Part shown: piece after piece, positions 10,633 through 33,674 of the stretch
Layout: each line of letters starts with the position of its first letter
Numbering within the stretch: the stretch's first letter is position 1
Assembly (NCBI GenBank): GCA_963662275.1
Contig: OY759316.1
Span: 4,160,001-4,224,000 of the forward strand
Length of the DNA: 64,000 nt
From: Candidatus Cloacimonadales bacterium
GTDB taxonomy: Bacteria; Cloacimonadota; Cloacimonadia; Cloacimonadales; DAONDQ01
Reading direction: 5' to 3'
Position numbers and translations under genes: made by a program
The notes under the pieces: model-generated
The model's database searches: none
What the model saw: the letters and a program-made list of their open reading frames with translations, nothing else
What the model was told of the DNA's origin: nothing

Positions 10633-13600
10633 TTATTTAACAGCAATCACTCTGTAGAAGCGAAGGCCATAAGAATCTGCATCACCAGTGGCTTCATAGG
10701 TAGTTGCACCAGTAAATTCACCAGTAGTAAGTACAGAATAAGTACCATTTGGAGCATCTGCATATTCAACGATATAGCTGGTAGCACCAGTTACCGCAGC
10801 CCAAGTAAGGATAACGTTATTTCCGCTAACTTCAACGCCTACAGCGATTGGTGCAGAAGTTGAAATATCAGCAAGACTGCGTGGTACAAATTGGGAAGTT
10901 GTTGTATACTGCAGACAGATACCAGTGTAGTTTCTCGCATCGGTAGGTGTGGCAGTTGTGATATAATCAAGATCAGAATAGGCTGTGCGTATTAAGCCTG
11001 TTCCGGTCGGATCAGTGATCGTGATGTTTGCTCCACTTGTAAATGTGGTTACTAATGGATCGATTTCGACATTTTTAATGCGGATAAGCTGTGCCTGGTA
11101 TGTAGTATTTAAACCGGCAAGTGTCACATCGACTGGAGTGGGCACATAGCCTGATGTATTTGTAGCAGTACCGGCATCAGCAGTAGGTTTCAGTTCTATC
11201 ATACCGTAATAATTGGTTAATGTTCCAAGAATTCCGGTGATTCCATTACCAATAGAATAAGTGGTTGTCATTTTTGCAGGAGCTGCATCATAAATCTGAA
11301 TCGCTCCAGTTGCATCCTGGATATACTTGTTTTTTGATAAACTAGTAGTCCCAGTGGTTGACTGAAGTGTCAAAATGGCTTCACTTGTCAATCTGTAAAG
11401 TGTTGTACCGTCATTGGATAACCCGTTGTAAGCAGGTGCAGCCGCACGTAAAGCTGCGATGCTGGCAACATTGATGGGGAATGTATAAGTTGCAGTTGCA
11501 ACATCACTACTTGTCCAAGTTGCTCTATAGGCAATTGCTTTGATCGTAGTTGTCGAACTGACATTAATTGGTGTCCCTGTGTACAAGGTTCCAATCGTTT
11601 CTGTCGGTGAGGTTACACCATCAGTCGTATAACGTATAGACGAACTGGGTGTTAAGCAACTTAGTGTTACGTTTTCTGAGGCAGAATAATAAATACCTGG
11701 TGCCGGATCAAAGGTCGGTAAGGACACAATCGTGAGAGCACGTCCGGTGATTGAAACATCATCAATACCGAGACCCTGGACATAGGTGGTGGTAGTTCCG
11801 GTAACAACTGAATAGTTCCAGGCAAGATACAGTGCAGAAGATGCAGGTACCGTAACACCTAGTGTGCCGGATACAGGAATTGTGGCACCTGGAGCTGAGA
11901 CATAACCATAAGTGGTATCATCGGCAGCAGGCCAGGAGGCAAGGAAATCCGTTCCAGCATCGTTCCAGGATGTACCATTCAATGAATAGTACATTTGGAT
12001 TCTGCTACCAGCACTATTGATTCCCTTTCTATACTTTTCAGCATTGAAAGAAATGTCAAATGCGGTTATTGCAGAAGCACCAGTGTTCGTTAACATGGCA
12101 TATATATTGCCACTTTTAGTTGCACTACCGGATGAGACAAAACCTAAAGCACGGTCAGTTGCCGTAGCCGCGTCACCGGCACCATAGTTATATATGCCGT
12201 TTTGCGCAGAAGAACTCATCAGGTTACCCGCTCTTAATTCAGTAGCAGAAACAGCAGCGCTATACGTACCTACCGTACGGACAGTGGTGTTTTTATCCAC
12301 TTTCCAACCAGATCCTAGAGTCGCAATTGCAGCAACGCCAATGGCATTAAAGTTTTCAGTAATAGTAGAACCTACTTCAATATTCATTGGTGAACTGGTT
12401 CCTGTACCATAAACATTAAGGTTTGTCGTCACACTATTTGCAGTATGAGAGACAAGTCCGTCATTCGTTCCATAACCCAGGGGTTTGAACTGAACATATA
12501 GCAGACCATCATATGTAGGTGGGACTTTGAATGTAGAAACCCAAGGTCCGGTGGTAAGTTTAGATATTTCATAACCTGTTGGTGCAGTCACGGTAATACT
12601 GTCTGTTAAACTGGCTCCTGTGAGAGTATATGACTGGTAGGAAGAAGTTGTACCAGCAGGTGTGGAAAAAGTACGTGACGTTGGATTAACAGTAATGGTC
12701 GCTGCAGTTGTCGCTGTACCATATACTGGGAGATCAACTTCTGCTGCACCTCCTGCAACATTGGTAACAAGACGATTTTCGGTTCCAGGTGCGACAGGGT
12801 TGTAACGTACAGAAATCGCTTGTGTGCCGGGAGGAGTTACATCGACCGAATCAGCCCAAGTTGAAGATTCTGAATATTTCACTTGGTAATGTAGAGGAGC
12901 TTTAATCCGAATATCCGTTGTAAAAGTCCCTGTACTTGTTACTTCATAATCTTGTCCAGCCGAAGGTGTACCACTCGGTGTTGAGAAAGTCAATGAAGCT
13001 TTGTTGAGTTCAATCAAACCGGTAAAACTGGAAGGGTAAACATCGTTCCAGGCTGTACCTACTTTGATTGCATCAATAATACAAGGAGGTGTATTAGAAC
13101 CTTGACGCAAAAAGAATGCTGATAGAGTAGTTGCATCAGCACCGGCATCTGTACTTGTCAAAGTAGGAGCTGTCTCTGTTCCCGGTGTGGGAGGGTTGAT
13201 CCATAAATAAGCCACATCATTCGTTGTACTTGCAACGTATGTATATTTCAAAATGAAAAGATAGGTTGTCCCTGTGTCATAGGTTGCAGTTGTATAGACA
13301 GCAGTGCCTGTATATTTAGATAATCCAACCGTATATTTGTTCGTTAATGTTGCATCTCTCTTAAAAAAGATTCTTCCATAGAATGTTGAAGATCCAGTTC
13401 CAAGACTAATTTCATAATCCGCATTTGCATTGGGAAAACTGGATACATTGATAAGAAAAGCAGAATAGACACTACCTGATGTAACTGCTGTAAATGTTTT
13501 GTTGATATCTTGACCGGTTGAAGTGGTTGTTTGGCATTGAAGACCAACACCGGTTGCTGAATAATTTGCGTAAGTCAAGTTACCAGTTGTTGACAACCAA

Positions 13601-13767
13601 GGATTTGTTGTGCCACCACTATGAGTAGTCCAACCATTGATTCCAGAGACAGCAGAACCAGCAGTAAATGTTGGTGTCGCAAAGTCTTCTGTCATCAAAG
13701 ATGTAGCATAGAGGGAACAAAGCCCAGCTACCATTAAAAGGGAAATGAGTAGAATCCATTTTCTCAT
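10633..13767 (-). CDS. Secreted Thr/Ala/Gly-rich multidomain protein (Ig-like repeats, FN3-associated domain, OB-fold-like domain, C-terminal incomplete FN3-like module)
   Basis: Signal peptide MRKWILLISLL; PTFDPAPGIY...IRYTTDG...TIKAIA; YIQDATGAIQIY; ends LTW..VTGATSY...RFYRVIAVK. Confidence 0.85.
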   Translation of the reverse strand: MRKWILLISLLMVAGLCSLYATSLMTEDFATPTFTAGSAVSGINGWTTHSGGTTNPWLSTTGNLTYANYSATGVGLQCQTTTSTGQDINKTFTAVTSGSVYSAFLINVSSFPNANADYEISLGTGSSTFYGRIFFKRDATLTNKYTVGLSKYTGTAVYTTATYDTGTTYLFILKYTYVASTTNDVAYLWINPPTPGTETAPTLTSTDAGADATTLSAFFLRQGSNTPPCIIDAIKVGTAWNDVYPSSFTGLIELNKASLTFSTPSGTPSAGQDYEVTSTGTFTTDIRIKAPLHYQVKYSESSTWADSVDVTPPGTQAISVRYNPVAPGTENRLVTNVAGGAAEVDLPVYGTATTAATITVNPTSRTFSTPAGTTSSYQSYTLTGASLTDSITVTAPTGYEISKLTTGPWVSTFKVPPTYDGLLYVQFKPLGYGTNDGLVSHTANSVTTNLNVYGTGTSSPMNIEVGSTITENFNAIGVAAIATLGSGWKVDKNTTVRTVGTYSAAVSATELRAGNLMSSSAQNGIYNYGAGDAATATDRALGFVSSGSATKSGNIYAMLTNTGASAITAFDISFNAEKYRKGINSAGSRIQMYYSLNGTSWNDAGTDFLASWPAADDTTYGYVSAPGATIPVSGTLGVTVPASSALYLAWNYSVVTGTTTTYVQGLGIDDVSITGRALTIVSLPTFDPAPGIYYSASENVTLSCLTPSSSIRYTTDGVTSPTETIGTLYTGTPINVSSTTTIKAIAYRATWTSSDVATATYTFPINVASIAALRAAAPAYNGLSNDGTTLYRLTSEAILTLQSTTGTTSLSKNKYIQDATGAIQIYDAAPAKMTTTYSIGNGITGILGTLTNYYGMIELKPTADAGTATNTSGYVPTPVDVTLAGLNTTYQAQLIRIKNVEIDPLVTTFTSGANITITDPTGTGLIRTAYSDLDYITTATPTDARNYTGICLQYTTTSQFVPRSLADISTSAPIAVGVEVSGNNVILTWAAVTGATSYIVEYADAPNGTYSVLTTGEFTGATTYEATGDADSYGLRFYRVIAVK

Positions 13768-23717: not shown

Positions 23718-24236
23718 CTATTTATTGAGTGGTAATTTACCTTTGGCTTTATTCAGGGGAGGAACTATTTGTGCTTCACTTTTATCACTCACGAAGATAG
23801 CCGCAGTCCCTTCCGGAATAAAATAACTCCACGAAGTTGATTGATTATAATATGGACCTTTTCCAATATAAGTGACAGTGCAATGGATTTCATCCCCGGG
23901 ATTTACCTGGTTCTCAAAGGAAGCTAATTGAACATATAAAAATGCACTAGCTAGTTGACCTTTTCTAAGCACATTGATCCTTAATGCATAAGGCGTAGCT
24001 CCACCTGGTTGTGCAGTCGTAATTACTTGTCCTGGAGACGAAGAGCAGGTCACTGTGACTAAGTAGTTTTCGTTATGCGTCATTCCTGTGTTAGTAACAC
24101 TTTCTAGAATATTCACTTTTGGACTGATAATCATCTGGTAATAACCGCGTGGATCATGCTTAATAGATGATGCGTTAGCTATCAGATTACTTAATGCCAT
24201 GAGGCAAATAATTAGTAAAATCATCCTGCACTTCAT
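23718..24236 (-). CDS. Secreted single-domain protein homologous to the N-terminal domain of 24450..26681
   Basis: Signal peptide, AAGGAG RBS; RGYYQ..VTNT..NYL..YVQ..F..TYIG..W....GTAAI..VPP shared with neighbour. Confidence 0.82.
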   Translation of the reverse strand: MKCRMILLIICLMALSNLIANASSIKHDPRGYYQMIISPKVNILESVTNTGMTHNENYLVTVTCSSSPGQVITTAQPGGATPYALRINVLRKGQLASAFLYVQLASFENQVNPGDEIHCTVTYIGKGPYYNQSTSWSYFIPEGTAAIFVSDKSEAQIVPPLNKAKGKLPLNK

Positions 24237-24449: not shown

Positions 24450-26681
24450 TTATTTTACAATAACCATTTTCTTGGTTGTATTGACACTAGCTGAGCTGAG
24501 TTTGTAGAAATAAATTCCACTGCCACAGACAGCATTACGATCATCACGACCATTCCACTGGATGTTGTGTGCGCCTTCTGAACGGACAAAGGTCTTTACG
24601 GTCTGACCAAGTACGTTGTAGATGGTAAGTGTGGCGTTTTCGCCTCTCTTGACATTCAAACCAATGTTGGTATTGGTATTAACATTGAAAGGATTTGGAT
24701 AAGCATTTTTCAGTTCTGTTGCAACTGGTACTTGTGGAACTGGTGTTTGACCATTCGTTGTTGTAACCATGACAGAATTACTGAAATTGCTTTGTCCACT
24801 GAGAGGAACCATCTCTAACCAATAGTAATATGTAGTTTGAGGATCAACTGAATTATCCACAAAACTATAGTTATGAGTTGAAGATGAGTTTGTTCCAGCG
24901 ATAATTTGGAAGTTTACTTTAACTGCATTGTCAACGTTGCTGTTACTTGAACGATAGACATTGAAACCAAGGTTATCAGTTTCTGATTCGGTCGTCCACT
25001 GCAGATTGACAAACATTTGTGCTGTAGCAACAGCATTGAATGATGACAATTCAACAGGCAGATCCAAGTCTGTGCCCATGATGAGTTCTAATACTCCGCC
25101 TGGAGCTTTTGCAGCCCACGTTGGGATTGGACCTATTGTCAAGGCACCGGCTAAATAACCTGCAGCCGTAAATGGTGCATCACCAAGGACAAAGTCATAA
25201 GGTGGATATTCAACTGTGCCACCATTGAAGGCATAACCAGGAGTAGGAAGGTTAACCATCGGATGATCAGTTGGATAATAACCATCATCGACTCCACCCC
25301 AGTGAATTGCTACATACTTGTAACCGAGAATTGGATCATAATTCAAGACAATTGTTGCGCCATTAAGCTCATTTTGATCTACGACTTCAGCTTTATAAAC
25401 TGCAACAACATTACGATAGCCGTTATAGAATCCTTTTGCTGGTGGAACATATTTTGTGAAAACAATCACACCACCAGTTGATGCTGGTCCTGCGGTACCT
25501 GATAATGTAACGCCACCAGTTGCAGGAAGTGTAAAGCCTGAACCTGCGGTTGCACCAATAACACCAACAGCAGCGGCAACGCCACCACCGGTTGTATTTG
25601 CTGGATTCGTATATACGAAGTTATGTCCACCACTTACAGCGGCTGTAAATTCAAATGGAGCTGGAGTAACCTGGGTAGTAAGATCCATAACTTTGTAAGT
25701 ATGTGAAGTACCGACATTACATGTGAAATGATAAGGTGCTGAATGACCTGTGGTTGTATAAGTTTCACCAATTAATTCATAGATCAGCACGCCGGGGATA
25801 TTGGATGTGACGTAAGCATCATAGGTGGTTGGAAGATCATCTTTCGTAGTGAAATCAAAGACATCTGACCATTCACCATCAGCTCTTGAAGTAGTTGCAG
25901 CACGCTGCATTGAAGGAGCTTTTCCCTTTCCAGGTGCCGTTGTACTTGCCTGTACTTGCCAATAGTAATGAGTTGAAGGTAATGCAGAAATTCCATAAGC
26001 TGTACCGACTACTGCAGCTTGATTATGAATCTGCGCAGTTGCTAATGCACCGGAGGATATTGCATATCTTACATTATAATAAGTAGGTGTTACGATACCA
26101 GCACCGAGAGTATAATCCCAATCCAAGTTAAGAGCACCGAAATCAACTCCTGTCTGATGTAGTGTTGGTGCTGTTAGTGTTGGTACACCAAATACATCTG
26201 GAGCTGGAGTCGGAGGTACTGTTACAGAATAACCGGAATGGATTAAGTCATTATAAATAGCTGCTGTACCTGATGGGACAACAAAATCCCACTGTGAAAA
26301 AGCACGACTTACACCTTTTGTGCCAATATAGGTCAATTTGCAACGAATAATAGTTGTTGCAGGAATTGCTGTAGGCATAAAAGCACTAAATTGAACATAA
26401 ACACGAGGACCGGCTCCAGCTAAACTGAAAACACGTAAACTGGAAATAGGGGTAGGTGTTGACCCACCAGTTGACAATGTTCTGACATAACCGTCAGCGG
26501 AAGTCGTGACTTCCAACAGATAGTTTGGACTCGTCGTTGTTGTTAAAGTGTTAGTTACATAAGTTGTAATCAGGTTTGGAGCTTGGCAAACGATTTCCTG
26601 ATAATAACTTCTTGTGGTTGCATTCAGTGATACGCCTAAAATTAGCGTAAACATTAATACTAAGAATACTAATTTTTTCAT
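24450..26681 (-). CDS. Secreted protein with unrecognised N-terminal domain, FN3-like domain, LPVELSSF domain and FlgD/T9SS-type C-terminal domain
   Basis: Signal peptide; AGGAGG RBS; LPVELSSF; YPNPFN...GIYFY...KKMVIVK. Confidence 0.87.
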   Translation of the reverse strand: MKKLVFLVLMFTLILGVSLNATTRSYYQEIVCQAPNLITTYVTNTLTTTTSPNYLLEVTTSADGYVRTLSTGGSTPTPISSLRVFSLAGAGPRVYVQFSAFMPTAIPATTIIRCKLTYIGTKGVSRAFSQWDFVVPSGTAAIYNDLIHSGYSVTVPPTPAPDVFGVPTLTAPTLHQTGVDFGALNLDWDYTLGAGIVTPTYYNVRYAISSGALATAQIHNQAAVVGTAYGISALPSTHYYWQVQASTTAPGKGKAPSMQRAATTSRADGEWSDVFDFTTKDDLPTTYDAYVTSNIPGVLIYELIGETYTTTGHSAPYHFTCNVGTSHTYKVMDLTTQVTPAPFEFTAAVSGGHNFVYTNPANTTGGGVAAAVGVIGATAGSGFTLPATGGVTLSGTAGPASTGGVIVFTKYVPPAKGFYNGYRNVVAVYKAEVVDQNELNGATIVLNYDPILGYKYVAIHWGGVDDGYYPTDHPMVNLPTPGYAFNGGTVEYPPYDFVLGDAPFTAAGYLAGALTIGPIPTWAAKAPGGVLELIMGTDLDLPVELSSFNAVATAQMFVNLQWTTESETDNLGFNVYRSSNSNVDNAVKVNFQIIAGTNSSSTHNYSFVDNSVDPQTTYYYWLEMVPLSGQSNFSNSVMVTTTNGQTPVPQVPVATELKNAYPNPFNVNTNTNIGLNVKRGENATLTIYNVLGQTVKTFVRSEGAHNIQWNGRDDRNAVCGSGIYFYKLSSASVNTTKKMVIVK

Positions 26682-26696
26682 ATTTATCCTCCTACA

Positions 26697-27365
26697 TTAT
26701 TTTGTACGGGTTGTACGTGGTGTATGTACTTTGCCGCTGACAATGCCTTTCGCTGAAGGCCAGGTAGCTGCTGTTGCTGCATTAACCATGAATGCTGCAC
26801 CGATGGATGTTGCAGTTTCAGTATCAGACCAACCGAAAACTGAATCATAATCAACTGCATACCAATCTTGAACGTCATTCAGCCATTGATTAACAGTTGT
26901 TACATTACCGGTAAAAGCGTCACCAAATGCACTGATGGTTGCCAAGTCAGAACGATTCAATGGAACCATGACCAAATTCAAACCTTCATACATATTATAT
27001 GAAGGATCTGATGGTAATGGACCCATACTGTAAGCATCAAAAATAGCATTTGAATTTACATAGACAACTTCACCTGGTGAAATGGTAAATACATCTGACC
27101 AGCCAAAGACTTCATCATAATCAATTGCATACCAGTCTTGAATATCAGGCAGCCATTTGTTGACAGTCGAAATATTGCCACCCATCGCGGTACTGAAATC
27201 TTCAGCAGTAGCGAATCCTGGTGCCATTGGAAAGGCGATCAGATTCAACCCTTCTACACATGGATATTTCACATACCCAACTACAGCGCTGGGAGTGGAC
27301 TCAGCGGCTAACAGAAAACTGCTGATAGCCACGAGCATTAACAGAGGGAGTAACACTTTCTTCAT
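26697..27365 (-). CDS. Secreted protein with two ~95-aa internal repeats
   Basis: Signal peptide ending FLLA; EGLNLIAFPM...VNKW..D.QDWYAIDYD.VFGWSD repeated as EGLNLVMVPL...VNQW..D.QDWYAVDYD.VFGWSD; AAGGAGG RBS. Confidence 0.88.
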   Translation of the reverse strand: MKKVLLPLLMLVAISSFLLAAESTPSAVVGYVKYPCVEGLNLIAFPMAPGFATAEDFSTAMGGNISTVNKWLPDIQDWYAIDYDEVFGWSDVFTISPGEVVYVNSNAIFDAYSMGPLPSDPSYNMYEGLNLVMVPLNRSDLATISAFGDAFTGNVTTVNQWLNDVQDWYAVDYDSVFGWSDTETATSIGAAFMVNAATAATWPSAKGIVSGKVHTPRTTRTK

Positions 27366-27436
27366 GTAACCTCCTTAAGGTTAATCATAATTTTTTGTAG
27401 TCTCTTTTTTACAGACCTAGTTACAGATTTCATTGA

Positions 27437-27460
27437 GCGGGGATAAATTAAATCCCCGCC
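27437..27460 (-). terminator. Hairpin between the 1931-aa and 222-aa genes (terminator or mRNA-stabilising stem)
   Basis: gcggggat aaattaa atccccgc; no clear T-tract on the minus strand. Confidence 0.45.
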
Positions 27461-27474
27461 CAAAATTTAGCAAG

Positions 27475-30400
27475 TTATTTTTTTATCCGCGCCCCTGTTG
27501 TGTTATAGCGAGGATGGATTGAAGCTGGTCTCAGAGCAGTAAGAGTCTGGTTTCTATTTACTTTTTTACTGCCATTGATCGCTGTTACTTTGTAGAACAA
27601 CATTCCGTTGGATGTTGTGTCTAAGTACGAATTCGTCAACACCGCTGTTACAAATGTCCAGAGACTATCAGCAGCATACGGATCCGCAGAAGTGTAGATG
27701 TTATAACCAGTTGCATTTGTGCTTGCCGCCCAATTCAATTGAACTCCAGTTGGCACAACTGTAGCTACGAGGCTATCAGGTACAGTAGGAATTACTGGAG
27801 CAGCCAAACCAGGTAAACCAACATCATCGATATATAACCCGTACATATCTGCAGAATAATATTGGAATGCCAGGCAGACCGTATAACCATCGTAATCAGA
27901 AAGATCAATTTCATATCCTACATATGTCTCGCTATCAAAAGCAGGAACATCTAACAGAGTGACTGTGAAGTCAGCAGGGAGAGTTCCCGTAGTGGAAAGC
28001 ATTACCTTGAAGGATTCAGGATAACTTGCACTCTCTACTCTTGCATAGAATGATATTTTATCACCAGTTACGATATCAAATATGGGTGCAATTAACCAGT
28101 CGTCATTAGCTGATTCATATGGAATACCAGCGGTTTTCACGCCTGAATGTGCATTCGAAGAGTAAATGCCCCAAGTGTTACCATCACCATCAAAGTCATC
28201 TACATACCATCCGGTATATGGTGACACTTCCCAATCCTGGGTTGTGATTCCGGCATTGGATTCGATGGCTACAACTTTATCAGCACCACCATTGGAGTGG
28301 ATCGTCACTGTTTCTGCAAATAAACCCTGTGTATCGGGTTCATAAACAACTTCAACAATGAGAGTAGCTGGTGAAGCTTGAGTGAATGTTGCCGGACCTG
28401 TAATACGATCAGAGGAATATTCAATTGTTCCGGTCAGTACGCCAGGACCTATATTGCTGATTGTGAATGTGTCAGATGTACCGCTGCCTATTGGAGTAAC
28501 AGGCAGGATAATTTTAGTTTTATTAATTGAAATCTCGGGAGTAGTTGGTACAGGATTAATCAGGATGTCATCAAGACCTGAACCATAAGCACTATATGAT
28601 CCATCTGTCTTATAGCGCCAGCGAAGTATTCCAGTTCCTGAATAAGTTGCCAATGATATTGTACTCTGATGAAATGCGGATTCAGAAGATGCAGCAGACA
28701 AAGTATCAAGAGGTGCCCAAGAAGAACCACCGTTCATTGAAATTTCAACAAAAGTAGAATCATGAGCTATGATCTTTGCATCCATATCATTATTCTTCCA
28801 CCACCAGCTTAAGATCATTGGAGCTGATAAATCGATTGGCGGAGTAGTTAAGATCTTGGTTCCAGCCGGGGTATATACAGCGCGTGCACTGTAAGTACCT
28901 GTATTGGGTTCGCTTGAATGCGACCATTGATCTGCAACCCAGCCAGCAGGCGGGAATATGGAATCTTCAAATCCCTGAGTATAGGGGAAGTCCTTGATTG
29001 TAGGATCATCCATCGTCGTGAACTGCCAGATAGGGCAGGTATACAGAAGAGTAGCATCACCATTCAAGTTGTAAGGAATGATCTGCCAATAATAACGCTG
29101 TCCGTATACTAAATCACCGACATCAGGGACAAACGTCGTTACATTATACAAGTCTCTTGCTTCGCAAACGTCTGTCGGTGGATTATCGGTACCTAAAGAA
29201 AGTTTGTAACCGGTAGGTCCGCCGCCGCCTGAAGCCCACTGGAAAGTAGGTAACAGAGAGACACCAGTAGCCATACTATCAGGAAGAATCATGACTGCTG
29301 GATTTGGAGGTGTGGGAGGATCCCAGTGTTCTACATGAATCGTATAATCTTCTGTTTCACCCCAACTATAGGTTCCGACTGCCACGGTGTTTACTTCCGT
29401 GCCACTTTCTCTCAGTACAACACGCAGACGTGTAGATCCTGTATCAGCAAGCGCTGGTACTTCGATAGAGCCATTAATTTGCATGTGTGTTGAAGATGTT
29501 TGTCCAGTCATAACCTGTTCATCAGGTAGATCGAAGGTTCCATTCTGGTTGAAGTCAATAAAGACTTTTCCCCAGCATGGGTAAAAAGTATCTTCATTGA
29601 TCTGATGAATTTGGGTAGGATAACTATGTCCCTGCTGTACATGGATTGTAATCGCTGTGTAATCCGTGTACATATTTACGGATGCAACATTAGGTATAGA
29701 ATCAGGATGTACTGCCGGATTGGTGACATCAGCCATAATGAACTGCCCGATATCATCGTCTAAAGGACTTGTTGCAGTGGATGCGCCATAAGCCCAGCCC
29801 GTGCCTGTTGTGAATCTCCAGGTTGAGCTGCCTGTGGCATCACCATAGGTATTCTTTGCCACAACTTTCCAGAGATACATCGTATTAGCAGTCATCGTTG
29901 GAGGTGTCCAGGTCAAAGGAGTGGTCACGTTTGCATTGGCTGTGCCCGGTAAGGTTTGACCGAAGTACACATCATAAGAGGTTGCTGTCGCAACAGCACC
30001 CCAGGTTACCGAGGCATTTCTGCCAACATTGGCTGCACTATCTGCTGGTGTATGTGTTGTGACTATTGGAGGAACACCGACTGTATAGAAATTCCAAGGT
30101 GTGCAGCCGGTAGCATGACCGACCAAGTTGTAAGGAACAACTTTCCAGTAGTAATGTCCGTTCAGTGCAAGTCCTGCGGGCATATATTTGTTCACAAGAC
30201 CGACATCAACACTATCCACCATATTTGTAGGAGGATTATTGGTTCCTAAATAGATCAGGTAACCGGTTGGATCAGGACCCGAAGAATCTTTGATCCAGCT
30301 AAGGCTATCTGTAAGAGCAATCGAAGTTGCCCCATTCGTAGGATGAGTTACATAAGCAGGCAGTGGAGCTGTAGGAATCTTTTCGACTCTCACATCATCC

Positions 30401-33264
30401 ACGTATATATTGTTACCAAATTGACTCTTGACTTTCAGCATGACATATTTGCCATTACCGCCAGAACTGGTACCGAAAGGTACTACATACTGATGCCAGC
30501 CAGTGGTCGCTGTCGGTGCAAAAACACCGTCTCTCGGAACAAAAGTCAGTTTGGTTGCTGATGTTGTATCGGTAGGAGATGTTCCGTACCATACTGCGAC
30601 GCCTTCATCTGAGAATTTAACAGTATTATAACTGCTGCTCAGATCGCGGTACATCCAGAAGGTTACACGGTAATCATCACCAGGAACATTCATCGGTGGA
30701 GTTGACATCACTGCATGGTTTCCACCGGTAATACTATACGCATTATAGCGAGTCATTCCAACACCGCTATGAGGTGTACAGGCAGGATTAGTTGATGATG
30801 TTGTCTGATAATCCCAGGCTACTGTTGAAGGTGTAGCAATCACCGGGATTTGAGGATCAAGCGCAGAGATGGACTGATTTGTCCAGCCATAAGGTCCGGA
30901 ATAGGCTCTGTTAACATCAAAGCTTTCCACTAATGGGAAAGTTGTGACTAACGGATTCGGACCGACCGTAAATGTCCATACACTTGGTGTTCCGCCTGTT
31001 ACGCCAAAATCGTTCTTCGGAACGATCTTCCAGGTGTAGGCTTGACCGTAGGTCATGGTTGGAGGTGTCCAGCTCAAAGGAGTGGTCACCGTTGCATTGG
31101 CTGTACCTGGCATCGTGGTTCCGAAATACACATCATAGGCTGTGGCGTTCGTCACGGAAGACCAGGTAAGTGTTGCATTGTTCATCACCGGGTTGGCAGC
31201 ATCAGCAGGATAAGGAGTCGTAGCAACTCCGGTTACTAATGAAGCTGTCGTGAATGACCAGGTTGCAGGGGTACTGCAATCACCAACAGCATTTTTAGGA
31301 ACGATTTTCCAATAATAGGGAGTTCCTGCTGTTAGTGGTGAACCATAAGTATAGGTAGAATCTGCTCCATTGTTATAATTACTTACAAGTTCATTGGCAG
31401 CAACAGATGTGCCGAGATTGAACCAGTAACCTGTCGGAGCTGCCCCTAAAGGACCTCTGTGCCAGGTAAAGGTAGGAGAAGGTCCGACCAGGGTTGCAGT
31501 ATTAGCCGGGTATGGCGTCGATGCTGCATCCGGAGTCTGCGGGATCTTCTCAATAATTACATCATCAATATACTGGGATGAACCATATAAGCCCAATCCT
31601 TTGAAGAATATGTATCTGCCAGAACCGGCTCCAACTGGAAGCGCTTGAGTAATTTGCTCCCAGCCCGTGGTCGCATTATAGCAGACTGCTGTTGTAAGCA
31701 GAGTGGCACCAGACAGGGTTGGACTGCTGTTGATATAAACTTCAGTTTTTTCATTCGCGTAAGTCGGATAACCATTATAATGACGATACTGGAATTTAAC
31801 CCTGCAGGCATCAGCCGGCAAAGTCAAACGCGGAGAAATTAAAACACCCTGTGTTCCTGTGGAAAATCCGCCTGAACCAAAATAGGCTGAGCGTGTACCA
31901 CTAACATAATAAGATGTTGAAGGAGCCCATATACCGGTAGATGCTGTTGTGATATCGGTTTTATAGGTTGTCCAGCCAACAGGCATCGTGGAGGCTGCAT
32001 CAAAGTTCTGGTTCACAGAAGCTGAACCGAGGTCCACCGTCTGGTTTGCCCAGGTTGTAAACGTAGGTGTCGATGGGGTTCCTGTAGAAGCACCCAATGC
32101 GTTTCTTCCTACGACTTTCCAGGTATAAGCCTGGCTATATGACAATTCACCCGGATCCCAGTAAACATAACTGGCTCCGGCATTAGGAACTACGTTCGCA
32201 TTCGGGGTACCGGGCATGGTTGTACCAAAGTACACATCATAGGATGTTGCACCGGAAAGTACTGACCATTGCAGGATACCGATATTGCTGACATTGGATG
32301 CGCCAGTCGCAGGTACAAAACCTGTGACATTAGTTGTCAGCAATGCACCTGTTGTAAATTTCCAGATCGGCGTATAGGGGGCAGTACCTGATCCATTGTA
32401 GGGAACGACCGCCCAATAATAAATTGTCGAAGCAGCGAGGTTTGTGGCGGGAGTATAACTCGTAGCAGTAAAAACATCAGTTCCTAAAGCACCCGCATAG
32501 GTTGTTGGAAGCGTTGTACCGGAACCGTCAGTTCCTAAATAAATCTTGTAGCCGGTGGGCGCATTGCCATTACCGGCGTTCCAGGTTATTGTAGGTCTTA
32601 AGACAATCCCTGTGGCTGTATGCATAGGATAGGTATATTCAGCCTGTGTGGGAGTGGCTAAGGAAGCTGTAAAAGATGTGAAATTAAGTCTGATATTCGG
32701 ACGAGTGGTCGTAGCCGTACCTGTTTCTGTAGTAGGGGCAGTATCATCCTTGCGCAGGTACCAGGCTGAATTTGTTCCTGTTGTAACAGATGCATAATAT
32801 TGCGGATACGGGCTGTTGCCACCACCGCCATAATTACTTTCCACCAGGACTTCCAAGTTGTTGGCATTATAATTGAATGCTGTTGGCAAAGTCACGTTTG
32901 CCCATGTTTGAAGAGTCAAACTGGCAATTGTACCAGTGTAAACAGCAGTCAAGCCGGTAGTCTTGGTTGCCCAAGTTTCTGCGACTTCTGCCGTCGCTGT
33001 TGTCGTTCTCATATAGACGACCACGGGAACATTGGCAGCTGCCTTCGTAAGGTTTGGCAGGAAGCCTACGGAGCTAATCGAGCCATAGCCTCCAATTTCT
33101 GCTGCCGTATAAATTTGGGCGGAACGATGGTAGCCGTAATAACTGCCCCAACCATCATAGGTTGTGGCTGATCCGCCACCGATTAAAGTAACAGCAGCGA
33201 ACGCCGTTGTTACGCCGAGTATCAGAACAATCAATAAAATCGTTCTCATTAGTAGATTTCTCAT
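27475..33264 (-). CDS. Giant secreted adhesin-like protein (repeated FN3/Ig-like modules, cleaved-adhesin domains, GEVED domain, C-terminal incomplete FN3-like module with basic tail)
   Basis: Signal peptide; repeated YDVYFG/YYWKVVP.N modules; IDFNQNG.F...RLRV...GETEDY (GEVED); DDWLIAP; GAGGAG RBS favours ATG at 33264 over 33270. Confidence 0.88.
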   Translation of the reverse strand: MRNLLMRTILLIVLILGVTTAFAAVTLIGGGSATTYDGWGSYYGYHRSAQIYTAAEIGGYGSISSVGFLPNLTKAAANVPVVVYMRTTTATAEVAETWATKTTGLTAVYTGTIASLTLQTWANVTLPTAFNYNANNLEVLVESNYGGGGNSPYPQYYASVTTGTNSAWYLRKDDTAPTTETGTATTTRPNIRLNFTSFTASLATPTQAEYTYPMHTATGIVLRPTITWNAGNGNAPTGYKIYLGTDGSGTTLPTTYAGALGTDVFTATSYTPATNLAASTIYYWAVVPYNGSGTAPYTPIWKFTTGALLTTNVTGFVPATGASNVSNIGILQWSVLSGATSYDVYFGTTMPGTPNANVVPNAGASYVYWDPGELSYSQAYTWKVVGRNALGASTGTPSTPTFTTWANQTVDLGSASVNQNFDAASTMPVGWTTYKTDITTASTGIWAPSTSYYVSGTRSAYFGSGGFSTGTQGVLISPRLTLPADACRVKFQYRHYNGYPTYANEKTEVYINSSPTLSGATLLTTAVCYNATTGWEQITQALPVGAGSGRYIFFKGLGLYGSSQYIDDVIIEKIPQTPDAASTPYPANTATLVGPSPTFTWHRGPLGAAPTGYWFNLGTSVAANELVSNYNNGADSTYTYGSPLTAGTPYYWKIVPKNAVGDCSTPATWSFTTASLVTGVATTPYPADAANPVMNNATLTWSSVTNATAYDVYFGTTMPGTANATVTTPLSWTPPTMTYGQAYTWKIVPKNDFGVTGGTPSVWTFTVGPNPLVTTFPLVESFDVNRAYSGPYGWTNQSISALDPQIPVIATPSTVAWDYQTTSSTNPACTPHSGVGMTRYNAYSITGGNHAVMSTPPMNVPGDDYRVTFWMYRDLSSSYNTVKFSDEGVAVWYGTSPTDTTSATKLTFVPRDGVFAPTATTGWHQYVVPFGTSSGGNGKYVMLKVKSQFGNNIYVDDVRVEKIPTAPLPAYVTHPTNGATSIALTDSLSWIKDSSGPDPTGYLIYLGTNNPPTNMVDSVDVGLVNKYMPAGLALNGHYYWKVVPYNLVGHATGCTPWNFYTVGVPPIVTTHTPADSAANVGRNASVTWGAVATATSYDVYFGQTLPGTANANVTTPLTWTPPTMTANTMYLWKVVAKNTYGDATGSSTWRFTTGTGWAYGASTATSPLDDDIGQFIMADVTNPAVHPDSIPNVASVNMYTDYTAITIHVQQGHSYPTQIHQINEDTFYPCWGKVFIDFNQNGTFDLPDEQVMTGQTSSTHMQINGSIEVPALADTGSTRLRVVLRESGTEVNTVAVGTYSWGETEDYTIHVEHWDPPTPPNPAVMILPDSMATGVSLLPTFQWASGGGGPTGYKLSLGTDNPPTDVCEARDLYNVTTFVPDVGDLVYGQRYYWQIIPYNLNGDATLLYTCPIWQFTTMDDPTIKDFPYTQGFEDSIFPPAGWVADQWSHSSEPNTGTYSARAVYTPAGTKILTTPPIDLSAPMILSWWWKNNDMDAKIIAHDSTFVEISMNGGSSWAPLDTLSAASSESAFHQSTISLATYSGTGILRWRYKTDGSYSAYGSGLDDILINPVPTTPEISINKTKIILPVTPIGSGTSDTFTISNIGPGVLTGTIEYSSDRITGPATFTQASPATLIVEVVYEPDTQGLFAETVTIHSNGGADKVVAIESNAGITTQDWEVSPYTGWYVDDFDGDGNTWGIYSSNAHSGVKTAGIPYESANDDWLIAPIFDIVTGDKISFYARVESASYPESFKVMLSTTGTLPADFTVTLLDVPAFDSETYVGYEIDLSDYDGYTVCLAFQYYSADMYGLYIDDVGLPGLAAPVIPTVPDSLVATVVPTGVQLNWAASTNATGYNIYTSADPYAADSLWTFVTAVLTNSYLDTTSNGMLFYKVTAINGSKKVNRNQTLTALRPASIHPRYNTTGARIKK

Positions 33265-33674
33265 ATCCATCTCCTCATTTCTTGCTCTCTGGAGAATTGA
33301 TCCGTATTTTCTTCCAGAGATGAAATGTTAGACCTCCCAAACAATTTATACCAGATTGGGAGGCAACCAATTATTACGAAAGTTAACAAAGCAGCTAGAA
33401 CCGAAAATCAAGATAGATTCCGATTTCCTTCATTAAAAAAAGACGTGAACACAAACATCGGCTTGAGCCGCATTCATTTGTGACTTTTCTTACCTATTTT
33501 GTTTCCTTTTATTATGATCGTAGCTATTACACACTATGGAGTTGAAAGGGGACGGCTGATATACCGCCTAAGAAATCTGAAAATCTAAGAAGGAAAAAAC
33601 AAATACATTCCGTAACCTCCTATATCATAAAATTTTACGAATAAATACAGTCCACTCGATAATAATACGACTTT

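Follow-up and report, generated by a model that had tools for sequence, protein, structure and literature searches.

A small secreted protein that begins with the strand missing from its neighbours' C-terminal modules: a candidate strand-donating adaptor for type IX secretion cargo in Cloacimonadota

What is the role of a small secreted protein whose mature N-terminus looks like the last strand of a domain that its neighbours leave unfinished? The question is raised by a 64,000-nucleotide stretch (hereafter the window) of the genome of a Candidatus Cloacimonadales bacterium (assembly GCA_963662275.1, contig OY759316.1, positions 4,160,001 to 4,224,000), whose minus strand encodes a series of large secreted proteins. 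A single 4.38-Mb contig contains the window, and the genome, which is 99.97% complete, was scanned as 9635 open reading frames (ORFs). Four window proteins (743, 848, 889 and 1289 aa) end in a type IX secretion system (T9SS) sorting domain of type A by Pfam and NCBIfam; the same searches found neither Por_Secre_tail nor TIGR04183 in the 222-aa, 1931-aa and 1044-aa proteins. An earlier note, written from the DNA letters, had proposed that the latter two end in a fibronectin type III (FN3) module without its final strand, and that the 222-aa protein, encoded next to the 1931-aa gene, starts with this strand and captures such passengers by completing their fold. Having followed up this proposal, we consider a strand-donating adaptor its best-supported reading and, on balance, a probable one.

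The sequence statements behind the proposal all hold in the translations, the structural model and the alignment. The 1044-aa protein ends ...VILTWAAVTGATSYIVEY...LRFYRVIAVK, with its stop two residues past strand F, and the 1931-aa protein ends ...VQLNWAASTNATGYNIY...LFYKVTAING, followed by a 30-residue basic tail. AlphaFold2 modelled the C-terminal 110 residues of the 1931-aa protein as six strands (positions 14-18, 21-25, 34-40, 51-56, 60-63 and 71-77; pLDDT 84-94), with the seventh strand lacking. Because the tail was modelled as coil at pLDDT 50-63, it does not supply the missing strand. The best Foldseek matches of this module were FN3 domains (best E 1.9e-3, probability 1.00; rmsd 1.8-3 Å over about 78-87 columns), none of them at E <= 0.001. 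Pfam fn3 (PF00041) did not match either C-terminus above threshold, and just 2 of 21 terminal modules matched it at E <= 1 (best E 3.6e-4). The terminal modules thus share the beta-sandwich of the FN3 fold, but neither its Pfam signature nor its full set of seven strands A-G. The three complete G strands that had been named for comparison lie in the 889-aa and 1289-aa T9SS proteins, where they come right after F strands of the Y.V.A type.

The N-terminus of the 222-aa protein reads MKKVLLPLLMLVAISSFLLA up to the inferred signal-peptide cleavage site and AESTPSAVVGYVKY after it. The pattern ES.[PA]S..VGY occurs in one of the 9635 ORFs. A looser scan for a signal peptide plus motif returned five ORFs, among which only the 222-aa protein combines a true signal peptide with the motif, and neither scan found another donor in this genome. 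Back-translated, the motif was present in 27 of 61 related genomes, mostly in single copy, as compared with one match in each of five genomes for a reversed control pattern; the agreement between the mature start and the missing strand therefore goes beyond chance. Among 30 homologues (those that carry a name are labelled Cloacimonadota), residues A20, E22, S23, S26, V29, G30, Y31, V32, K33 and Y34 are invariant, and this N-terminal motif is the best-conserved stretch of an alignment with a mean column identity of 48% over its whole length.

Beyond the motif, the AlphaFold2 monomer model consists of a signal helix, a free coil formed by residues 21-28 (block pLDDT 61) and two similar beta units. 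This two-repeat domain has neither a family name nor a clearly matching solved fold. The 222-aa protein matched nothing in Pfam or NCBIfam, and its model had no Foldseek match in the PDB at E <= 0.001. Hits to PHROGs appeared only at E >= 0.02, none of them meaningful; the best result of the VIA wide search (Z 5.3, RCK_C-like chains) was weak and in the range of chance arrangements, and the ESM Atlas neighbours were unnamed clusters.

The pairing of the two parts was modelled with the C-terminal 82 residues of the 1044-aa protein, supported by an alignment of 21 paralogous modules, and the mature 222-aa protein with its 30 homologues. Three runs yielded ipSAE values of 0.92, 0.92 and 0.91, whereas the best control reached 0.01, the controls being unrelated proteins and not near-cognate decoys. 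The score mark that these runs passed is met by 116 of 157 solved complexes and by 2 of 215 mismatched pairs, counts that are only a rough guide here because custom alignments were used. The runs had at least 95% of their contacts in common (partner pLDDT 89-90), and all placed the motif as the missing G strand: the F strand (L87-A94 in a 96-residue numbering) ran antiparallel to K33-S23 of the 222-aa protein, whose N-terminus was also touched by the A strand of the module. The FN3 chain was modelled at pLDDT 81-83 with the 222-aa partner versus 57-58 with unrelated partners. The complex model supports binding without showing it.

The most telling evidence comes from relatives in which the parts are joined in a single chain. 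The earlier note had named natural fusions as a check, and these exist and are common. Searched against 1.84 billion representatives, the family profile of the 222-aa protein retrieved 1118 proteins (E <= 1e-3), and we sorted the best 150 of these into classes with local profiles. Sixty-five were stand-alone small proteins and 16 were fragments. In 27, the domain is C-terminal with a passenger in front, and 22 of these carry an FN3 module of the terminal subtype that ends just ahead of ES.PS..VGY; one such junction reads ...FYRVIAQSGR followed directly by VESAPSAVVGYVKY. Another 24 have the small protein with a C-terminal extension, which contains a YYQ-like 'mid' domain in 20 cases and, in 13 of these 20, a T9SS motif as well. 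The remaining 18 are extended on both sides, nine with FN3, mid domain and T9SS motif together. Every intermediate fusion state is therefore present among these best 150, and Pfam confirmed Por_Secre_tail in P0120, P0121, P0159, P0081, P0082, P0110 and P0131, and FlgD_ig in P0160.

The mid domain links these fusions to the gene downstream of the 222-aa gene. It is homologous to the 'YYQ' domain, i.e. the N-terminal domain of the 743-aa and 172-aa window proteins and of the proteins encoded downstream in relatives (hhalign probability 97.0, E 8.1e-11, 106 columns), and all three matches of the mid-domain profile at E <= 1e-3 among the ORFs of this genome were YYQ proteins. The single-chain order is passenger–FN3 / G strand–two-repeat domain / YYQ domain–...–T9SS tail, which equals the window gene order 1931 → 222 → 743; the two gene boundaries map to the F-G loop of FN3 and to the linker behind the two-repeat domain. 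Since the fused relatives run from the two-repeat domain through the N-terminal domain of the downstream gene to a T9SS sorting domain, the anchor side can be assigned to a T9SS cargo. Given that the 222-aa protein starts with the missing strand and that relatives hold all parts in one chain, it is probably an adaptor. The alternative offered in the earlier note, a surface-layer subunit, found no backing; nothing points to an S-layer.

The T9SS is represented in this genome by PorU (582 bits) and by SprA, above its cut-off. Type A cargo carries a C-terminal sorting domain, and the PorU sortase attaches it to the surface. The passengers and the adaptor fall outside this definition because they have no sorting domain. 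We propose, with somewhat better than even confidence, that the 1931-aa, 222-aa and 743-aa proteins represent one T9SS cargo split into three polypeptides and rejoined partly by strand complementation in trans. Piece 1 would be a large passenger without T9SS tail that ends in FN3 strands A-F. Piece 2, the 222-aa protein, would start with the missing G strand once its signal peptide is removed, and continue with the two-repeat domain; piece 3 would begin with the YYQ domain and end with the type A sorting domain. In silico, piece 2 is predicted to insert its free G strand by the F strand, along the A strand, of the passenger's terminal FN3, which would complete the sandwich in trans. The two-repeat domain, we infer, would hold piece 3 by its YYQ domain, an arrangement found within the single chain of fused relatives, and tail-less passengers would in this way be tied to a protein that is exported and anchored by the T9SS. 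Assembly might take place in the periplasm, with co-export, or at the cell surface. The 1044-aa protein, whose gene lies at a distance of 13 kb, is likely to be another passenger.

Table 1. Positions in the window of the proposed three-piece system and related features.
Feature	Position	Strand	Basis or remark
1931-aa gene	27475..33270	minus	start two codons upstream of that given in the earlier note
Six-stranded FN3 module, 1931-aa C-terminus (~residues 1834-1898)	27577..27771	minus	F strand LFYKVTAI last; no G strand
Basic low-complexity tail of 1931-aa protein, NGSKKVNRNQTLTALRPASIHPRYNTTGARIKK	27478..27576	minus	coil, pLDDT 50-63 in model
Spacer between 1931-aa and 222-aa genes, 109 nt	27366..27474	minus	G+C-rich hairpin and AAGGAGG ribosome-binding site in sequence
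222-aa gene	26697..27365	minus	translation
Signal peptide, residues 1-20	27306..27365	minus	cleavage after FLLA inferred by small-residue rule and family alignment; no predictor
Orphan FN3 G strand AESTPSAVVGYVKY, residues 21-34	27264..27305	minus	conserved in 30 homologues; fused relatives have their G strand colinear with it
Two-repeat beta domain, residues 35-118 and 119-203	26757..27263	minus	AlphaFold2 mean pLDDT 85
Basic C-terminal tail of 222-aa protein	26700..26756	minus	corresponds to linker to next domain in fused relatives
YYQ domain, N-terminal in 743-aa T9SS protein	26232..26618	minus	translation; profile-profile match to fused relatives
T9SS type A C-terminal sorting domain, 743-aa protein	24453..24701	minus	Por_Secre_tail E 3.1e-8; TIGR04183 E 1.7e-11
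172-aa secreted protein, YYQ domain alone with basic tail	23718..24236	minus	translation; aligns with YYQ set
1044-aa gene	10633..13767	minus	translation
Six-stranded FN3 module, 1044-aa C-terminus, ending FYRVIAVK and stop	10636..10860	minus	translation; acceptor chain in complex prediction

Several observations weigh against the proposed adaptor, and some of them also favour another account, in which the 222-aa protein does no more than accompany the downstream T9SS cargo as subunit or partner. Its G-strand motif would then be left over from an earlier gene fission, or be used by its own domain or by that partner, and the truncated ends would be self-sufficient modules with no need of a donor. 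The first concerns gene order. The 222-aa gene lies nearer to the downstream 743-aa gene (15 nt) than to the 1931-aa gene, from which it is separated by 109 nt with a hairpin in between; at this G+C-rich hairpin (27455-27474), straight after the 1931-aa stop, a terminator-like match was noted (27474..27455, a consensus match only), which may separate transcription of the 1931-aa gene from that of the 222/743 pair. We inspected 20 small-gene loci in 19 genomes. A secreted gene follows directly (<= 20 nt or overlapping) in all 20, and it has a T9SS-type tail in eight of the nine loci that contain its end, as judged by C-terminal sequence pattern, Pfam having been applied to the window's own protein only. 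Six of the 20 have a truncated-FN3 gene directly upstream (G000, the genome studied here, G001, G040, G033, G004 and G021, from four families), and no such gene adjoins the small gene in the other 14; in G054, one ends ~1.6 kb upstream. These six are nevertheless far more than the genome share of such genes (about 59) would give.

The second set of objections concerns the parts themselves. Residues 29-36 also form the first strand of the 222-aa protein's own domain in the AlphaFold2 model. Of the N-terminal segment, which the earlier note required not to be buried in its own domain, residues 21-28 are free as expected and have no intramolecular role in the model, but the following stretch is not. 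Likewise, the passenger module was expected not to be a complete fold by itself. The gap is indeed not filled by the tail, yet AlphaFold2 built the six strands confidently without a partner, a result that has no bearing on stability. The pass in the complex prediction may reflect no more than resemblance to solved intact FN3 domains, by which the halves of a split fold tend to pass. On the anchor side, the 743-aa protein is not matched directly by the mid-domain profile, the link running via the family alignment, and the scheme does not account for how a tail-less passenger crosses the outer membrane. What speaks against a mere downstream partner is that a leftover should drift, yet E22, S23, S26 and V29-Y34 do not vary among 30 homologues that average 48% column identity, and that the complex prediction passes with G-strand geometry. 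We regard the partner-only account as unlikely, though it is the alternative that survives best.

A third objection arises from the abundance of open ends. The truncated FN3 module is not peculiar to the window cluster and constitutes an unnamed C-terminal family in its own right. In 79 proteins of this genome its profile found 115 domains: 59 terminal copies (43 that end within 10 residues of the stop and 16 that end 11-45 residues ahead of it), 41 internal ones and 15 that fall short of the profile end. The internal matches are mostly ordinary FN3 repeats with a normal G strand that score below 30 bits, whereas terminal copies score ~40-70 bits (47.3 bits for the 1931-aa module); tails resembling that of the 1931-aa protein are found on 16 of the 59. 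The DNA pattern F-Y-[RK]-V-x-A-x-x-stop had 13 matches in this genome and none for its control. In relatives the same pattern was too noisy (0-8 matches versus 0-5 for the control), and profile searches and locus inspection were used there instead. When the final 85 residues of the 1044-aa protein were used in a word-based homologue search, only two proteins came back, which told us little. One further terminal-module protein is encoded just past the right end of the window (4224252-4227149 of the contig).

This genome thus has 59 potential acceptors for one donor. The proposed role as adaptor or anchor by FN3 completion finds partial support, in the fusions and the complex prediction, while the evidence goes against a strict one-to-one pairing. 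Compared with the FN3 modules of fused relatives, the 1044-aa module ranked first of the 59 (59.3 bits, 46% identity over 71 residues), its match stopping exactly where the fused G strand starts, and the 1931-aa module ranked 18th; because the ranking forms a continuum, this is only a modest hint of specificity.

The distribution among relatives is similarly uneven. The adaptor family profile matches 34 of the 61 related genomes, and the motif pattern 27. Truncated ends were found in all five adaptor-bearing genomes examined (this genome, G012, G022, G043 and G054), as co-occurrence predicts. However, four genomes with neither motif nor domain also hold module matches (52 in G010, 20 in G056, 16 in G045 and 14 in G052), and all 26 profile matches in loci fetched from these four end 0-45 residues before the stop. 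Truncated ends are hence plentiful in every adaptor-less genome examined of these four and do not depend on the adaptor, which fits the partner-only account too, and no conserved donor-like gene was seen after truncated-FN3 genes in these genomes. Two family-f6 genomes examined have neither adaptor nor truncated ends. Among the genomes examined, the distribution is nested: the adaptor is present only where sockets exist, and sockets also occur without it. As the genomes are few and related, this pattern is not a statistical test.

Such abundance would also agree with a different view, in which the truncated FN3 end is an order-wide sorting or anchoring signal whose open edge is filled by conserved machinery, and the 222-aa family is a specialised user or competitor. 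Dozens of terminal modules per genome, with or without adaptor, form a distinct, higher-scoring subtype, their number is comparable to that of T9SS tails (59 versus ~97 proteins by a loose sequence pattern), and the two family-f6 genomes lack both features. Against this, no candidate donor was found in the machinery, no other secreted protein of this genome begins with the motif, and truncated-FN3 genes of adaptor-less genomes have no conserved neighbour after them. T9SS cargoes were also considered as general donors and rejected; the N-termini of the ~97 tail-bearing proteins are diverse, and few have a YYQ start. We think an order-wide signal of this kind improbable, and for this locus it would be compatible with a strand-donating adaptor. 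The open-ended module is a much wider family than the adaptor. In a bolder form of the adaptor hypothesis, hitchhiking by strand complementation would be a general route of export or display: the ~59 tail-less giants of this genome would use the open FN3 as a universal socket, as would the 14-52 matches in relatives, and G-strand donors would tie them to T9SS cargo or other machinery. This generalization is tentative, and we consider it rather doubtful.

Finally, we consider it highly improbable that copies of the small protein form a head-to-tail polymer through donor-strand exchange in the manner of pilins, since, despite its conserved N-terminal extension, reminiscent of chaperone-usher pilins, and despite distant relatives with an N-terminal strand region and a C-terminal FN3 (P0134, P0144, P0154 and P0170), it has no acceptor FN3 of its own, usher and PapD chaperone were not found in this genome, and the tails of the P0134-type relatives may hold their own G strand. 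In these four relatives (~440 aa), the N-terminal strand region is followed by the two-repeat and mid domains and then by a C-terminal FN3 whose tail reads ...KTIEINEK. Head-to-tail joining is one possibility for them; the other is that this tail serves as their own G strand.

How does the proposed adaptor compare with known systems? In chaperone-usher pili, a second secreted protein lends its N-terminal extension, which completes in trans an Ig-like fold without G strand. The likeness, in our case observed in silico only, lies in an acceptor without its last strand and a donor extension, and also in the donor motif being the best-conserved part of the donor. The differences are that the acceptor here is no pilin but an FN3 module located at the very C-terminus of large multidomain proteins, that there is a link to the T9SS, and that neither PapD-like chaperone (PF00345) nor usher (PF00577) matched in this genome, both being found in an E. 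coli control. Because the 222-aa donor has no acceptor groove, the proposed contact would be a one-off docking and not a polymer. As to type V (FimA/Mfa) pilins, the 222-aa protein lacks their lipoprotein cysteine (its signal peptide ends FLLAAES) and has no Pfam pilin match. T9SS type A cargo is represented by the third gene (743 aa) and by the fully fused relatives, which carry the sorting domain; the route of the tail-less passengers would differ in resting on a non-covalent tie to such cargo.

SpyTag/SpyCatcher and FN3 fragment complementation are engineered cases in which a beta-sandwich minus one strand binds that strand as a peptide tag. Whereas these are laboratory constructs, the split proposed here would be a natural, genomic one, with no sign of an isopeptide bond. 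With cohesin-dockerin systems the proposal shares the modular docking of many enzymes or adhesins on a cell-anchored partner via a small terminal module; there, however, two complete domains are in contact, and here one strand would complete a fold. Pfam detected neither cohesin nor dockerin in the window proteins. A cellulosome-like complex has been proposed for a member of the Cloacimonadota (PMC8542988). Our literature search, covering its sources in part, returned no description of a split-FN3 docking system or its terminal module, and none of a cargo route via a non-covalent tie to T9SS cargo.

Several further loci bear on the distribution of these domains. Fusions were also found close to home, two in the relative G017 and one in this genome, where 2424607-2426718 (plus strand) encodes a 703-aa FN3–G strand–domain fusion. 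Its gene overlaps by 4 nt that of a 1705-aa T9SS protein (both within 2424607-2431832, plus strand) with the mature N-terminus GLPHLVTG..., a pairing of genes as in the window. Among the profile relatives, P0107 has four cohesin domains ahead of an FN3–G strand–two-repeat end, and P0121, a C25 (gingipain-type) peptidase, shows the fully fused architecture, so that the passengers found with the domain include scaffoldin-like proteins and proteases. In G040 (C2 3226000-3236000, L013), a tandem duplication of the small gene together with the ~730-aa T9SS gene downstream of it stands behind one truncated-FN3 gene. The small proteins of this G040 locus have a divergent domain after the conserved ES.PS..VGY start, with only the first 47 profile positions matching.

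The YYQ domain recurs at 697694-698719 (within 688956-698719, minus strand) in a 341-aa protein that combines it with a two-repeat region and has no ES.PS motif; 6 nt after its gene follows that of a 2910-aa protein with a YYQ start and the end ...YYFVIGFVG plus a basic tail. This pair is a second such module in a different arrangement. There are two arrays (2535159-2553579 and 3690111-3701814) of ~14 near-identical T9SS proteins of 532-568 aa, all of which begin MNKLFI...ATNHLDIMTSMQG. Five proteins on the contig (3471282-3472433, 2569993-2571192, 2907597-2917574, 144976-148437 and 3579610-3580713) have a high-scoring copy of the FN3 subtype near their N-terminus and no ES.PS G strand after it. 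The segment that follows, ...F.LVEGGTFNNG.S.VT.S.F, may supply the strand in cis in these five proteins; a similar case was seen in G043 (L075).

If a general route of the kind outlined above were correct, open FN3 ends would constitute a third class of C-terminal signal beside T9SS types A and B and a natural split-domain docking code, of which the 222-aa family would be the first donor recognised. For the locus itself, the adaptor reading, if true, would give definition to two families without a name, one of six-stranded terminal FN3 modules and one of two-repeat adaptor domains, and would offer protein engineering a ready-made pair of peptide and socket. It would provide a natural case of one domain split over two genes and rejoined outside the cytoplasm into a surface complex, and it would explain how, in a phylum that is little studied and largely uncultured, very large tail-less proteins can be linked to T9SS cargo.

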